Source of the DNA: Candidatus Harpocratesius repetitus | Lineage (GTDB): Archaea > Asgardarchaeota > Lokiarchaeia > Sigyniarchaeales > Promethearchaeaceae | Assembly (NCBI GenBank): GCA_021498095.1 | Contig: JAIZWK010000001.1 | Span: 3,780,001 to 3,812,000, forward strand | Length of the DNA: 32,000 nucleotides | Reading direction: 5' to 3' | Shown here: positions 20,266 through 26,364 of the stretch, one piece after another | How the letters are laid out: each line of letters starts with the position of its first letter | How positions within the stretch are numbered: the first letter of the stretch is position 1 | Program-made: the position numbers and the translations under genes | The notes under the pieces: model-generated | Database searches by the model: none | What the model saw: the letters and a program-made list of their open reading frames with translations, nothing else | What the model was told of the DNA's origin: nothing

Positions 20266-22029
20266 ATGACCGAACATTTATTACTAAAAAAATTTATTTC
20301 ATATTATCGCCCGCACCTTAAACTCTTTATACTTGATATGGTGTGTGCGTTTTTAATTGCTGCTTTAGATTTGGTATTTCCTCTTATTAGTGAAAGATTT
20401 TTAAAGGATTTCATTGTCAACTCCAATTTACGAATGATTTGGACCTTTGGTGGAATATTATTAGGATTATATTTAATTCGAACAGTTGCATTTTACATTA
20501 TGGCATATTGGGGCCATTTAGTAGGAGTTAACATGGAATTTGATATGCGTGCTGATTTATTTCGACACATTCAGAAATTAGACTCCGAATATTTTGATAA
20601 CACCAAAACTGGTCAAATCATGGCTCGACTTACAAATGATCTTCGCGATATCACTGAGCTGGCACATCATGGACCCGAGGATTTGTTTATCTCCATAATT
20701 GAGATAATTGGAACTTTTATTCTACTACTATTAAGAAGTTGGCTTCTTACGCTTATTCTTTTTGTATTTGTGGCAATTTTAATCTGGTTTACAGTTGGAA
20801 TGCGTACAACTATGTTGAAAGCGTTTAGAAATACGCGCCAAGAGCATGCTGAAATTAATTCTGTGCTCGAAAATTCAATTTCTGGCATCCGTTTATGCAA
20901 AAGTTTTGCAGCTGAACCTTATGAATTTGAAAAATTTGAGCATAATAACATTCGATATCGAAAATCTTACTATAAAGCATATCGAGTTATGGCAAATTAT
21001 GCTTCAGGAAGTAATTTTCTTACAGATATTTTAAGTTTGATTGCGTTAGTGGTTGGAGCAGTTTTTGTAGTCAAGGGAATTCAAGGATTAAGTAAGGAAC
21101 AATTGGTAACTTATCTTTTATTTACTAGCATTTTTGTGGCTCCAATTCGACGATTAGTTCAATTCACACAAATATTTCAATCAGGATTTGCCGGATTTAT
21201 ACGTTTTGGCGAAATTATGGATATTAAACCCAAAATAATCGATAGTCCTGAGGCTAAACCACTAGACAACATTCAAGGAAATATTGAATTTCGTAATGTA
21301 ACCTTCAAGTATAAGGATCAAACAAAACCGGTTCTTCATAACTTTAATTTATTTATTGAACAAGGAAAGACTGTAGCATTGGTTGGGCCCTCAGGAGTAG
21401 GAAAGACCACAATCACCCATTTAATTCCGAGATTCTATGAAGTAGATGAAGGTCAAATTTTACTTGATGGAAAAAATATCAAATCCATCGCAATTGACTC
21501 CCTGCGTAGCAATATTGGTTTTGTTCAACAAGATGTTATCGTTTTCTATGGAACAATCCGAGATAATATCATTTATGGAAAACCAGATGCAAGTGAAGAA
21601 GAAATAATTCAAGCAGCAAAACTTGCAAACATCCATGATTTTATCATGTCTTTACCTGATGGATACGATTCAATGGTTGGAGAGCGAGGTGTAAAACTTT
21701 CAGGCGGGCAAAAACAAAGATTAGCCATTGCTCGAGTATTTCTCAGAAATCCGCCTATACTTATTTTGGATGAAGCCACTTCTTCACTTGATACTGTTAC
21801 TGAATTGTTAATTCAAGATGCAATTATAAAACTGGCAAAAGGTCGAACCACAATAATAGTAGCACACCGATTGAGTACTATTAAAAACGCCGATGAGATT
21901 TTGGTGCTTACTGATGAAGGTATTGCCGAACGTGGGAACCATGATGAACTACTTGCACGAAACGGTCTTTATACCAATCTTTATAATGCTCAATTTGAAG
22001 GTTACCTACCTGATTTCATCGAAAAATAA
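20266..22029 (+). CDS. ABC exporter, fused permease/ATPase (MsbA/MdlB-like)
   Basis: N-terminal transmembrane domain; Walker A GPSGVGKTT, signature LSGGQKQ, Walker B ILILDE, H-loop VAHRLST. Confidence 0.95.
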   Translation: MTEHLLLKKFISYYRPHLKLFILDMVCAFLIAALDLVFPLISERFLKDFIVNSNLRMIWTFGGILLGLYLIRTVAFYIMAYWGHLVGVNMEFDMRADLFRHIQKLDSEYFDNTKTGQIMARLTNDLRDITELAHHGPEDLFISIIEIIGTFILLLLRSWLLTLILFVFVAILIWFTVGMRTTMLKAFRNTRQEHAEINSVLENSISGIRLCKSFAAEPYEFEKFEHNNIRYRKSYYKAYRVMANYASGSNFLTDILSLIALVVGAVFVVKGIQGLSKEQLVTYLLFTSIFVAPIRRLVQFTQIFQSGFAGFIRFGEIMDIKPKIIDSPEAKPLDNIQGNIEFRNVTFKYKDQTKPVLHNFNLFIEQGKTVALVGPSGVGKTTITHLIPRFYEVDEGQILLDGKNIKSIAIDSLRSNIGFVQQDVIVFYGTIRDNIIYGKPDASEEEIIQAAKLANIHDFIMSLPDGYDSMVGERGVKLSGGQKQRLAIARVFLRNPPILILDEATSSLDTVTELLIQDAIIKLAKGRTTIIVAHRLSTIKNADEILVLTDEGIAERGNHDELLARNGLYTNLYNAQFEGYLPDFIEK

Positions 22030-22040
22030 CCTTTTTGTTT

Positions 22041-22190
22041 TTTTCCAATTTTTTCCAAGTTTTTCTACCTTTTTCCAACATTTTCTAACTTTTTCCAATA
22101 TTTTCTAACTTTTTCCAATATTTTCTAACTTTTTCCAATATTTTCTAACTTTTTCCAATATTTCCATCTTTATCTAACTATTTTCAACTA
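22041..22190. repeat. 10-bp-period tandem repeat with 20-bp higher-order unit
   Basis: Twelve 10-mers of TTTTC(C/T)A-NNN from 22041 to 22160, including four exact copies of TTTTCTAACTTTTTCCAATA (22081-22160), plus degenerate copies to ~22190. Confidence 0.93.
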
Positions 22191-22219
22191 CTTATTCAAA
22201 ATTTTAAAAGATTAGTAAT

Positions 22220-22249
22220 AAAAAAAGAAGAACTCCTAATGCAAAGGAG
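22220..22249 (-). terminator. Hairpin plus U-tract after selD SECIS
   Basis: CUCCU-UUGCAUU-AGGAG followed by UUCUUCUUUUUUU on the minus strand. Confidence 0.5.
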
Positions 22250-22293
22250 GCTCGGGAGAAAACTCAAAGTTTACTTCTCTCCGTCGTAGCATT
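22238..22293 (-). promoter_or_regulatory. Eukaryote-like SECIS element in selD 3'UTR
   Basis: AAUGC/GCAUU helix I; A-CGAC...CGAG tandem G.A core; 8-bp helix II GGAGAGAA/UUUUCUCC; apical AAA 11 nt from the core. Lies 31 nt after the selD stop. Confidence 0.85.
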
Positions 22294-22324
22294 GAATTAC
22301 AAGATAATTTATTCCATTAAGATC

Positions 22325-23386
22325 TTAATATTCTTCAATTTCATGGTAGGTGATCTTATCATCAAATTTAACACCCTGTAGATCTTTTTCAATCTGTCCT
22401 ATCTCTATCCACCAAACACCAAAAGAATCCAACATGGAAGTGAAATCACTCCAAATGCTTGGATCAACTGCAATTAACATGGGACCTGCAATTTCCGCAG
22501 ATTCCCCTTCAGATAACCCATAACAAAAGAGATCATCCAACTCTAATGCATAAGCAATTGCAGGTAAATGAGTAATGCGTGCCCCCAAGTCGGTATTCAG
22601 AAGCATTTCTTCAAGATGACCTTTAAAACCGAAACCTGTAATATCCGTCATGGCATGAATATGAGAGAAAAACTTGCCAGCGTGAATTACATCAGGAATG
22701 GGTTTATTGCTAGTCGTCATGATTTTTGTAGCTATAGAAACGGCGCGTTCAATTCGTGTCAAATCAAAATTCTTCAACCATGCAATATCTGAATTTTTAG
22801 CACGATCCGCAGCCATTACGGGATGAATTCCCAAGGGTTTGGTTAATAAAAGCCGATCACTCGCTTTAATTCCACGTTTAAAGATTAAATGTGCAGTTTT
22901 TTCGATAGCACTTACACTTCCACCTAATAATGGCCATGGATTTTGAATAGTATGACCGCCTGAAATGTCAGCACCTAATGATTTAAGCAGATCTCGTGTT
23001 CCTTTGAGCATCTCCTCGGCATAACCTTTGGGAAGATCGGTGGGTAGTCCTAAGAAACAACTGTAGTTTAAGATACGGCGCGCATTTAGAGCATATATAT
23101 CATTTGTTACATTAACAGCTGCAATTTTTCCCATGATATATGGATCATCATGAATTGGAGTTACAATATCCAGATTGGTTAATAGACTATCTGTCTCAGA
23201 AATTGCAGTAATTGCGCAATCTTCTGCATCCGAATTAAGTCCGACTTGATTGAGTAGATTATTGAGATCAAGGGCAGGAAGTTTACAGGATCATCCATGA
23301 AGTTGAGTTTTTTCAGTTAATCTGAAGACAGAGTTTTTTGAAAGAATATTAAAATCGGACTGTCGTTCAAAATTTATTCGATTCAC
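22325..23386 (-). CDS. selD: Selenide,water dikinase (selenophosphate synthetase), selenoprotein with Sec at UGA 23291-23293
   Basis: The frame upstream of the track start continues FRLTEKTQLHG-UGA-SCKLPALDLNNLL...EDCAI...LDIVTPIHDDPY into MGKIAAVN. Downstream motifs GGHT, LLLTKPLG, DITGFG. About 353 aa from GTG 23386. Confidence 0.95.
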
Positions 23387-23472
23387 CTCCACTCCGTGAG
23401 TGCATGATTATAAGAAGAAATCAACCAAAAAAAACTGTGGTATTATTTAAAATTAATAAATTTAACTTCAAT

Positions 23473-26364
23473 TTACAAGATAATTTCCATTTCTTTTTGC
23501 ACGCTCGATAATTTTCCAAATGGGTTTTGGTAATTAATATTTAATAGCCAACGTTTTAATTCATAGCGCTTTTCCCTTTCTTTTTCAATTTTAAATACCC
23601 ATCTTAAAATTCGAGAGGTTTCTGGTTCAAATTCATGAATTATCAATTCAAGTGGATCACTTTGATTTGTTTGCAGTTTTAAAAAAGAAGGATGAATAAA
23701 GATTAGACTTAAATCATTCAAAAAGAATTTTGTTGGATTATGAAGACGGAGATCAAAAATAATTTTACTTCCAATAATTTCAACTTTTCTATGCAATTGT
23801 ATGAAATTTTCACCTAATGGTTTGTTGGGTTGAACCAATGCGTTATTTCGAATTTCTGCAAGAAGTTTGTGTTTCTTTAATAAATTAAATATAGAAGTCT
23901 TCAATTCTTCAATAGGAATTGAATATACTCGAGATAGTTGATATAAAGAAAGAGGATTCATATAACTTAAATATTCATTAATTTCAGCGCTGAAGATTTC
24001 TTCTTCAATAGCATCTTGAAATTTATCTAATAAGTCTTTTAATTCAATTTTTACATTATTCCAATGAAGCACATAATTTTGCAATTCTTCAGGATTTATT
24101 TGAGATAAGTCAATAGAATCAATTTTTTGATATATATTATCAATTTCTTTATTATACTCTTCAATTGTGTTAGAAATATTATCTATTGTCATTTTAACCA
24201 TATTACGCGCTTCAGCAAACCGACGTTTTTTAATTTCAAGAAATATGGGTTTTGTTAATTTATCAAAGCTTTCTTTAATCTCACGCAAATTTTGAATAGC
24301 TTGTAAAACAATACGTTGAAGATTACTATTTAGAAAATCAAATGTTATTTTCTTTTTCAAAATATTTTGATTATCATCCTTTATTTCGAGAGTTCTTTCT
24401 AAATCTTTGAAACGATAAATTACTGAAGAAAGATATTGTTGAACTTCAATCTTAACATCAACCCATAATAAGGTAACTTCTTTCAAAGCCTCTTTAAATT
24501 CCATATTTTGCATCCACAATTGCCCAATTTCAAATTCCAGGGTATAAAGTTCTTTCCGCACAAAAGAAATTTTTTCTAATAACTTTTCAGAAAGGGTAGA
24601 TTCAGATAAATTTTGATTTTCATGAAGTTGATTCTCAAGATCTTCGATTTCTTTGTAATTTTCATTCATTTGGTGAATTCTATTTGTTAATTTTTGAATT
24701 TCTTGCTTTAATTCATCTAAATATTTTTCACGTCCTTCTGAAAGTCTATTAATCATGATATATTTTACATCTGAAATATTCTCAAGAACTTCATCCTTTA
24801 TTTCTTTGAAATCTTGTACAATCTCCATAGAAAAACGTTTAAATTCGGAGTTATTTAAAAACGTCTCCATTTCATTTAGTTTTTCGACAATTCGATTACT
24901 CTCTTCTTCCATAAATACTTCTGCTTTTTGAAATTGATTTTCTTCTATCATTCTCTCAGATTCTTCACGCATATTTTGTATATAGGTCTGAAAATCTTCA
25001 AGTCCTTGATAAAATTCTTTTCGTTGTATTTCAATTTCTTTAATGTCTTCATCGATATTTTCAAATAAATTATGAATTTTTTCTAATGAAATATCAATCT
25101 CATCAAGCACATCGAGATCTTTCTCATCTTTTCGATAGTTTTGAAGATTTATAAAAGTCCATACTGCAACAGATTGTATATTCAGAATATAAGTCAAATC
25201 ACCTAAAAGTCTTATAGTTTGCCTTCTTTGGCGCCAATCATCCGGATTTAATCCTAAATACATACGTGCTAATTCTTCTTCAAATACATCTGATTTTTCC
25301 ATATAAATTTTAATCAAACAATCACTAATAAAATCTCTAAACTTTGAGCCTGAATCAATTAATTGCTGAATTAACTGAGGTAACATCTGATGCATGTTTT
25401 GCACAACAATGAATATTGTAGATTCAGTTATTCCTTCTAAAATATCTCTTGATACATCATTTTCTTCAAGATACTGTCTGAAAAATTGAAGTAATCCAGG
25501 ACCCTTTGATTTCCCCACTTTAACAAATGCATCAATGGTTTTTGTCTGAACCATCATAATAGAATCAGAAAACATATCAATCAAACGGTGGAAGATTATT
25601 GTAAAATCAGTGAAAAATAAATCGCCTATTTCTCCGACTATCCAAATTCCTTTTTCGCGTATTTCCCAATCTGAATCATTTAAGATAGATAATAAGATAT
25701 CAACCATTTCTGGACCAGATAAGTGGTAGCCTAATGCTTTTACTGCTTCTGTAGTTAAACCTCTGATTTCTTCATCAGGATCTCGAATTAATTTAGAAAA
25801 ACTTGCTTGAAATATTTCGAGTAGTCTTTTTGGAGGATGAGAACTAGGAACCAAAAATTCCAGCATACCTTCTATAGCTTTTGCTCTAACCCTCCAAGAT
25901 TTATCCTCAAACATCTTTGAATAAGTTATGTAAAGATCAGGATAATGATCAAATGATTTCTTAAGTACTTCAGCAAGTAGTTTAACTGCTGATTCTCGAA
26001 CCTTTTTATCTGTATCGAATAGTTTTGATTCACACATTTCAATAATTGGATCAAATTTCGCAATATCAGCAATTCTAAAGATTTTTCTAAGAATAAGAAG
26101 TGTTTCTTGACGAACCCAATATTCTTTATTATTCAACAACTCTGGAATATATTTCATAGTCAATTCTATGGTTAATGGAGTTTTATCACAAAGAGCATCA
26201 TAAACTTCCAAACAATAAGCAAGGTGGTCTTCATCTTCTGATTGTAAGGTATTAACCAGAAAAGAATTGGTTCTTTCTATCGCAATTTCATACTGGCGAT
26301 TCTTAATTGCTTGCTGAATAAATTCAATGAGATTGTTCGCATTATTCAAAATTTCGGGGTTCAT
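23473..26364 (-). CDS. Large HEAT-repeat protein with helical middle region, PCI-like winged helix and C-terminal Ig-like/appendage domain
   Basis: About 9 HEAT repeats (LLNNKEYWVRQET, LFDTDKKVRESA, MFEDKSWRVRAKA, LIRDPDEEIRGL, ILNDSDWEIREKG, LNPDDWRQRRQT), an E/K/Q-rich helical region, and a beta-rich last ~115 aa. Confidence 0.85.
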   Translation of the reverse strand: MNPEILNNANNLIEFIQQAIKNRQYEIAIERTNSFLVNTLQSEDEDHLAYCLEVYDALCDKTPLTIELTMKYIPELLNNKEYWVRQETLLILRKIFRIADIAKFDPIIEMCESKLFDTDKKVRESAVKLLAEVLKKSFDHYPDLYITYSKMFEDKSWRVRAKAIEGMLEFLVPSSHPPKRLLEIFQASFSKLIRDPDEEIRGLTTEAVKALGYHLSGPEMVDILLSILNDSDWEIREKGIWIVGEIGDLFFTDFTIIFHRLIDMFSDSIMMVQTKTIDAFVKVGKSKGPGLLQFFRQYLEENDVSRDILEGITESTIFIVVQNMHQMLPQLIQQLIDSGSKFRDFISDCLIKIYMEKSDVFEEELARMYLGLNPDDWRQRRQTIRLLGDLTYILNIQSVAVWTFINLQNYRKDEKDLDVLDEIDISLEKIHNLFENIDEDIKEIEIQRKEFYQGLEDFQTYIQNMREESERMIEENQFQKAEVFMEEESNRIVEKLNEMETFLNNSEFKRFSMEIVQDFKEIKDEVLENISDVKYIMINRLSEGREKYLDELKQEIQKLTNRIHQMNENYKEIEDLENQLHENQNLSESTLSEKLLEKISFVRKELYTLEFEIGQLWMQNMEFKEALKEVTLLWVDVKIEVQQYLSSVIYRFKDLERTLEIKDDNQNILKKKITFDFLNSNLQRIVLQAIQNLREIKESFDKLTKPIFLEIKKRRFAEARNMVKMTIDNISNTIEEYNKEIDNIYQKIDSIDLSQINPEELQNYVLHWNNVKIELKDLLDKFQDAIEEEIFSAEINEYLSYMNPLSLYQLSRVYSIPIEELKTSIFNLLKKHKLLAEIRNNALVQPNKPLGENFIQLHRKVEIIGSKIIFDLRLHNPTKFFLNDLSLIFIHPSFLKLQTNQSDPLELIIHEFEPETSRILRWVFKIEKEREKRYELKRWLLNINYQNPFGKLSSVQKEMEIIL

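Follow-up and report, generated by a model that had tools for sequence, protein, structure and literature searches.

Behind the only selD gene of Candidatus Harpocratesius repetitus stands a 3′UTR hairpin that is, in our judgment, very probably the working SECIS element of that gene, folded as a kink-turn and carrying at position L3 a C that the lineage tolerates. In this one letter, the Loki selD element naturally has a substitution that, in the eukaryotic system, amounts to a null allele. The class of element has been described already and the gene has been catalogued (Huang 2024); what is new here is the ACGA core, which places C at L3, is maintained by selection, and coincides with the mammalian loss-of-function change. 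In other words, ACGA is a variant of one nucleotide in one lineage within a described class. That it matches a mammalian loss of function makes it, we think, more noteworthy rather than less: a natural ACGA, kept in two diverged strains behind the sole selD, offers a direct handle on how archaea recognize a SECIS.

How would such an element work? We suppose that the selD SECIS would direct Sec insertion at a UGA 1 kb upstream; that the RNA would fold into a GC/GC C-stem, a UAC bulge, tandem G.A and A.G pairs, a C.C pair, an 8-bp helix II, and a loop containing AAA, with a small hairpin and then a U-tract lying 3′ of the kink-turn; and that, by analogy with the complexes of L7Ae-family proteins and kink-turns, where U is normal at this place, the L3 base would be flipped into a protein pocket. 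If the lineage does tolerate C at L3, it follows that C must be acceptable to its SECIS reader, or else that ACGA is read with reduced but sufficient efficiency.

The Gene and Its UGA

The window (by which we mean the whole 32,000-nucleotide stretch analyzed) is part of a complete 4.36-Mb genome (G000:C1:3780001-3812000), and in that entire genome there is one selD match. The protein scores 194 bits against NCBIfam TIGR00476, for which the cut-off is 125, and it is letter for letter (100%) the entry "Lokiarchaeia_GCA_021498095_U" in the selD supplement of Huang et al. 2024 (PMC11227280). The FrhA, FrhD, and HdrA selenoproteins of GCA_021498095 in the files of that paper likewise map to the genome at 100% identity, and selD had therefore been catalogued earlier as a selenoprotein gene; the present gene lies inside the 2024 data set, where selD is among the families that carry eukaryotic-SECIS-like elements.

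A single in-frame UGA interrupts the frame, at 23293-23291 on the minus strand, within the motif HGUSCKL, which is a known Sec/Cys site. The genome also has a tRNA-Sec and SepSecS (347 bits), and at least nine other SECIS-bearing genes (at least 10 including selD itself) rely on this one selD. The hairpin thus lies in the 3′UTR of a gene with UGA at a known Sec site, in a genome with Sec machinery.

The neighborhood holds several things of interest in their own right. Immediately upstream of selD is an ORF of 963 aa (23473-26364, minus strand) with faint HEAT-repeat matches in Pfam and a long middle part that is coiled-coil-like and rich in Glu and Lys. An ABC-transporter-like gene (20266-22029, plus strand) is convergent with selD. 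The gap between the two convergent genes contains, just past the selD U-tract, a tandem repeat (22041-22189) with a 20-nt unit, 7.5 copies, and 87% matches, which in a second strain is shorter and diverged.

The Element and Its Surroundings

The minus-strand letters that drew attention to this place (22293-22238) proved exact on re-reading, and most of the parts first named in them hold. The distance of about 1 kb from the UGA is 1000 nt as measured, and the hairpin begins 32 nt past the selD stop. The 8-bp helix is there (22282-22275 with 22262-22255), as is the unpaired AAA in the loop, which starts 12 nt past the A of the 5′ GA. The tandem G.A/A.G core was also rightly recognized; its G and A are invariant in the 78-element alignment described below. 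The parts are collected in the table.

Table. Features of the selD gene and its 3′ element, in window coordinates
Feature	Positions	Strand	Remarks
selD (selenophosphate synthetase)	22325..23392	(-)	GTG start 23392; TAA stop 22327-22325; frame open if TGA is read through
Spacer, stop codon to conserved element	22299..22324	(-)	Freely variable; 6 differences in 26 nt from second strain
Conserved 5′ flank, AAUUC then AAUGC	22289..22298	(-)	Identical in second strain
C-stem, 5′ strand GC	22290-22289	(-)	Covariation of -1b/-1n and -2b/-2n
3-nt bulge UAC (L1-L3)	22286..22288	(-)	Variant C 22286 is L3, in the place of U in AUGA
5′ G-A of core (22285-22284), then 3b (C 22283)	22283..22285	(-)	G and A invariant
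Helix II and apical loop	22255..22282	(-)	8 bp; loop GUAAACUUUGAG 22274-22263, 12 nt, UAAAC conserved
3n (C 22254), 3′ G-A (22253-22252), GC 22251-22250 (C-stem, 3′ strand)	22250..22254	(-)	
3′ hairpin: CUCCU, loop UUGCAUU, AGGAG	22233..22249	(-)	5 bp, in minimum-free-energy fold; adjoins C-stem
U-rich tract UUCUUCUUUUUUUAUU	22217..22232	(-)	Flagged with 3′ hairpin as terminator-like site

Could a hairpin of this kind stand here by accident? We scanned the 4.36-Mb genome, both strands, with a strict pattern ([UC]GA, any nucleotide, a stem of 8 or more perfect base pairs, AAA near the start of the loop, any nucleotide, GA), which matched only 34 times. At that density, a 100-nt segment would contain roughly 4e-4 matches on average, and this is about the probability of a chance match within 100 nt of the selD stop. 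Together with the homologous elements that follow selD at the corresponding position in relatives, this puts the hairpin beyond chance. A second SECIS for selD was sought between 21900 and 23700 and was not found, the other pattern matches there falling only in the tandem repeat.

The 3′ hairpin and the U-tract that follows it make up the sole terminator-like site in the region, and the tract (22232-22217) is probably where the transcript ends. A run of U lies 3′ of the element in nearly all of the relatives. Counterparts of the hairpin, written in other letters, adjoin the core on its 3′ side in the congeners and in the rest of the family, as well as behind the genes for FrhA, FrhD, and two small selenoproteins of the same genome.

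Covariation and the Fold of the Core

Behind the selD stop of 81 relatives, drawn from the genus, family, order, and class, lies an element with the same layout, and we aligned the 78 distinct selD elements (alignment A6). Helix II is 99.6% paired in this alignment, with double-sided changes at six of its six shared pairs. Over the whole element, 95.3% of the cells assigned to pairs are in fact paired, compared with 75.8% in shuffles (0 of 500 reach the observed figure) and 31-52% when the partners are slid.

The core has its own signal. In 78 of 78 elements, position -1b, which lies 4 nt upstream of the 5′ GA, is paired with position -1n, the first nucleotide past the 3′ GA, as CG (51), UA (19), GC (4), or UG (4), with 23 double changes and a mutual information of 0.81 bit. 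Next to it, -2b/-2n is paired in 69 of the 78 (UA 56, AU 6, CG 4, GC 3); the bulge is 3 nt long throughout; and the 3b.3n pair is mostly non-Watson-Crick, the C.C found here being unique to this selD among the 81. The covariation of -1b with -1n argues for a core that would be a canonical 3-nt-bulge kink-turn, in which the variant C would be L3, unpaired in the bulge. That is, C-stem, 3-nt bulge, G.A, A.G, 3b.3n, and helix II appear in the canonical order, and the element would share with the known kink-turns (box C/D, the U4 5′ stem-loop, Kt-7) the C-stem, the 3-nt bulge, the presumably sheared G.A pairs, the 3b.3n pair, and the NC stem. The same layout also fits the other SECIS-like elements of the genome.

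The initial annotation had drawn the core otherwise, with the C facing a G and with a helix I (AAUGC with GCAUU). Spelled out, that geometry would be a non-Watson-Crick quartet in the eukaryotic style, in which the C is joined to the G that follows the 3′ GA, an isosteric C-G standing in for U.G, and helix I would close the element, leaving an 8-nt internal loop on the 3′ side. L3 and -1n are indeed pairable (U/G, U/A, or C/G) in 74 of the 78 elements, and AAUGC is complementary to GCAUU; however, the mutual information of L3 and -1n is 0.006 bit, which is to be set against the value for -1b/-1n, and the two positions present no double change and four cases of U.C. Helix I fares no better, having no counterpart in the congener G002 (it is not conserved) and clashing with the position-conserved 3′ hairpin, in whose loop GCAUU sits. 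As a model, it evaluates at -9.7 kcal/mol, compared with -14.3 kcal/mol for helix II together with the 3′ hairpin. Covariation already disfavors the quartet, and we regard it and its helix I as very unlikely. What stands of the first reading is the eukaryote-like (Lokiarchaeota-type) SECIS in the 3′UTR with C for U; what falls is the C facing a G and helix I.

If the kink-turn fold is right, then the "eukaryote-like" elements of Loki would be plain 3-nt-bulge kink-turns rather than SECIS elements with a large internal loop, which bears on the transition that has been proposed from archaea to eukaryotes.

The C at L3: Reality, Rarity, and Maintenance

A single odd letter in a single genome invites suspicion, and the first thing to ask is whether the letter is real. 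It is. The C at 22286 (minus strand) does take the place of the U of AUGA, as had been claimed, and contigs from the sample that is the probable source read the same as the window. Because an independent contig from another study (a Logan contig of 47,966 bp, with 95.7% identity over 22130-23397) has the same letters, the C did not arise from faulty assembly. The protein cluster of the ORF downstream of selD led us to this second-strain contig, on which we read the 3′UTR directly; its SelD is 96% identical to the present one, and the same protein is also found on a 188-kb NCBI contig.

The C is also rare. L3 is U in 80 of the 81 selD elements (the bulges of the congeners read AGU and GUU) and in 9 of the 10 SECIS-like elements of the genome, selD being the exception. 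Scans for SelD in further genome and metagenome contigs added eight loci, none with C at L3. A literature search for "ACGA" in connection with SECIS gave nothing relevant, and the published text of PMC11227280 mentions no ACGA core, the Asgard cores given there being AUGA_GA, AUGA_AA, and GUGA_GA only.

It has nonetheless been kept. The second strain is identical over the 90 nt that run from AAUUCAAUGC through the U-tract, ACGA included, so that the element has 0 changes in 90 nt and the adjoining spacer 6 in 26 (Fisher p = 2e-4). The coding differences listed between the strains number 30, all of them after the UGA codon, with 20 synonymous and 10 non-synonymous. By these two comparisons, both the reading frame past the UGA and the ACGA element are under purifying selection, as a working SECIS predicts.

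These same figures bear on the bleakest reading of the variant, namely, that the SECIS is dead and that selD is on its way out or has found another route to expression. The thought is a natural one, for the same substitution is a human null allele (PMC1874613), but the genome has only this one selD, its Sec machinery is intact, and at least nine other selenoprotein genes remain in it. Substitutions beyond the UGA still favor the synonymous by two to one, and the element has not changed at all where its spacer has. We consider a disabled relic exceedingly improbable and return to the element as a working SECIS.

Still, what can be held against a working SECIS deserves to be put together. By analogy with mammals, the change from U to C should weaken the element; the near-universal U among the relatives suggests that L3 is normally constrained; and we have also counted on this side the failure of the Rfam SECIS models to match and the existence of a competing Watson-Crick register. 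This last point needs some explanation. There are three differences in the core from that of G002 (at L3, 3b, and 3n), all of them from U to C, and two of them give the core G's Watson-Crick partners; as a result, the unconstrained fold is better by 3.4 kcal/mol than the fold compatible with a kink-turn, a gap that ranks second among the 78 elements (median 0), in nearest-neighbor energies that do not score kink-turns. The gap may reflect attenuation or switching, or it may mean nothing.

It would mean something if the SECIS were deliberately weak or switchable: the C at L3 and the C.C pair would lower the affinity for the reader, the core could pass into a plain Watson-Crick helix, and SelD would be made at low or conditional levels, as feedback on the Sec pathway. 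The weakening of recognition by U-to-C in mammals (PMC1874613, PMC3706390) fits such a scheme, as do the rank of the competing register, the uniform direction of the three core changes, which furnish both core G's with G-C partners, and the perfect conservation of the element between strains. Against it, a relative with a normal AUGA (L012) has a similar energy gap, and nearest-neighbor energies leave kink-turns unscored. We think a switch of this kind unlikely, and it would in any case be a refinement of the working SECIS, not an alternative to it.

Relation to Known SECIS Elements

Where does the element belong? In terms of the model of Huang 2024, its core is of the GA_[G/A]A type, with GA and GA flanking the stem at an offset of one nucleotide on each side (C and C), and its 8-bp stem and 12-nt loop with adenines at the start of the loop fall within the limits of 7-15 bp and 8-20 nt. 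The AU (rarely GU) that precedes the 5′ GA elsewhere is here AC; AU is a strong consensus that lies outside the 2024 search model.

With the eukaryotic-SECIS-like elements of Asgard archaea (PMC4989117, PMC11227280), the selD element shares its place in the 3′UTR near the stop, the arrangement 5′ xUGA...3′ GA around a stem of 7-9 bp, and the adenines with which the apical loop begins. It differs from them in its core, since ACGA is absent from the list of cores in the published text, and in its loop: the published selD elements of Asgard archaea are mostly type II with a ministem, whereas the present element, like the others of its family, belongs to type I and has a loop of 12 nt.

With the eukaryotic SECIS (RF00031, SBP2), it has in common a kink-turn-like G.A/A.G core, a helix II of similar length, an unpaired AAR some 11-12 nt above the core, and presumably action from the 3′UTR at a distance. 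Unlike the eukaryotic SECIS with its large internal loop, it has a 3-nt bulge and a covarying Watson-Crick pair; it has no Rfam match; and its genome is without an SBP2 homologue, having only two genes of the L7Ae family (PMC4989117). The kink-turns bound by L7Ae and 15.5K strongly prefer U at L3, where this element has C (PMC1874613), and its role would be recoding, not RNP assembly. As for the methanogen SECIS, with its asymmetric GAA_A bulge and its G+C-rich stems, both would be archaeal 3′UTR hairpins for the recoding of UGA, and there the likeness ends, the architectures being unrelated (definitions in PMC4989117 and PMC11227280); no GAA_A bulge was found in or around the hairpin.

Neither RF00031 nor any other SECIS family of Rfam matched the window at the gathering threshold or the region 22100-22420 at E<=10. 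The absence of a match agrees with the report that both the eukaryotic and the archaeal SECIS models miss Loki elements (Mariotti et al. 2016, PMC4989117). The matches that these scans did yield were chance ones, to snoRNA and CRISPR families.

A GGGA type of SECIS has reportedly been described in protozoa (Novoselov 2007).

The Mammalian Mutation and the Reader

Mammalian SECIS elements invariably have U as the third nucleotide of the bulge or internal loop, and a change of that U to C in the SECIS of selenoprotein N abolishes SBP2 binding and selenoprotein N synthesis and leads to rigid spine muscular dystrophy (Clery et al. 2007, PMC1874613). The proteins of this class are not of one mind about the pocket: L7Ae and 15.5K prefer U there and yeast L30 prefers C or A (PMC1874613), and U40C abrogates binding by mammalian L30 (PMC3706390). 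The pocket position of the selD element, then, does not hold the U of an L7Ae/15.5K/SBP2-type kink-turn.

Who reads it? The genome has two genes of the L7Ae family, as do its relatives, in keeping with a report that Asgard archaea lack SBP2 (PMC4989117). We aligned L7Ae and L30e from the genome and four relatives, and the alignment has no lineage-specific change in the RNA-binding motifs, a result that does not bear on which protein would be the reader. We know of no binding protein for any archaeal SECIS. The candidates whose handling of ACGA and AUGA could be compared are L7Ae, L30e, and aSelB.

Tentatively, and conceding that the odds are against us, we suggest that the Asgard reader differs from SBP2, L30, and L7Ae at L3 and accepts C, or else that a deliberately weakened, switchable SECIS has been retained behind selD to provide feedback on the Sec pathway. 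Were the reader to accept C, then ACGA, along with the AUGC_AA and GA_UA cores of the same genome, would become a probe for the archaeal SECIS-binding factor and a route by which to trace the rise of the strict AUGA requirement of eukaryotes.

Other SECIS-Like Elements in the Genome

The other selenoprotein genes of the genome were found by way of the protein lists of the 2024 paper. Covariance modeling from four selD elements (R1 and R2) proved too specific, recovering neither the other SECIS elements of the genome nor those of the distant family. A loose pattern scan with an upstream-ORF filter was dropped after some 1,600 noisy candidates, as was a codon log-odds screen for read-through UGAs, in which even the known cases were unranked.

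The SECIS in the 3′UTR of frhA/vhuU (G000:C1:1500025-1500100, plus strand; L041, ~325-400) reads AAU-GC-A...G-AA-G, as it does in the congener G002, and its second core pair would be C.A rather than A.G. In other members of the family, including the congener G001, the core is AUGA_GA; in the variant element, the C-stem pairs, the AAU bulge, a helix I of CGCCC/GGGCG, and the 3′ hairpin are all present. Two further elements of G000:C1 have non-standard 3′ cores, GA_UA, with A opposite U, at ~3231726 (minus strand) and GA_AA at ~479068 (plus strand). The A.G position of the core seems to be loosely constrained in this genome, the G.A pair and the U at L3 being kept.

Two small paralogous proteins of 104 and 89 aa have the motifs GUUG, with two adjacent Sec residues, and GUCG, respectively. 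Their loci are L031:170-481 and L032:162-428, both on the minus strand (G000 ~2668770-2669080 and ~1470510-1470780), and a canonical AUGA SECIS follows each gene. The proteins match NCBIfam NF041239, "CC/Se motif family (seleno)protein," weakly and below its threshold, and are outside the five families given for this genome in the searched files of PMC11227280.

In a neighboring family (f3), finally, the frhA gene and its element appear to run into one another: at four loci (L051, L053, L054, and L056), the stop UGA appears to be shared with the U-G-A of the SECIS core, the order being UGA, U, an 8-bp stem, an A-rich loop, the stem again, U, AA, and C, and the element would thus begin within the last codons of the gene.
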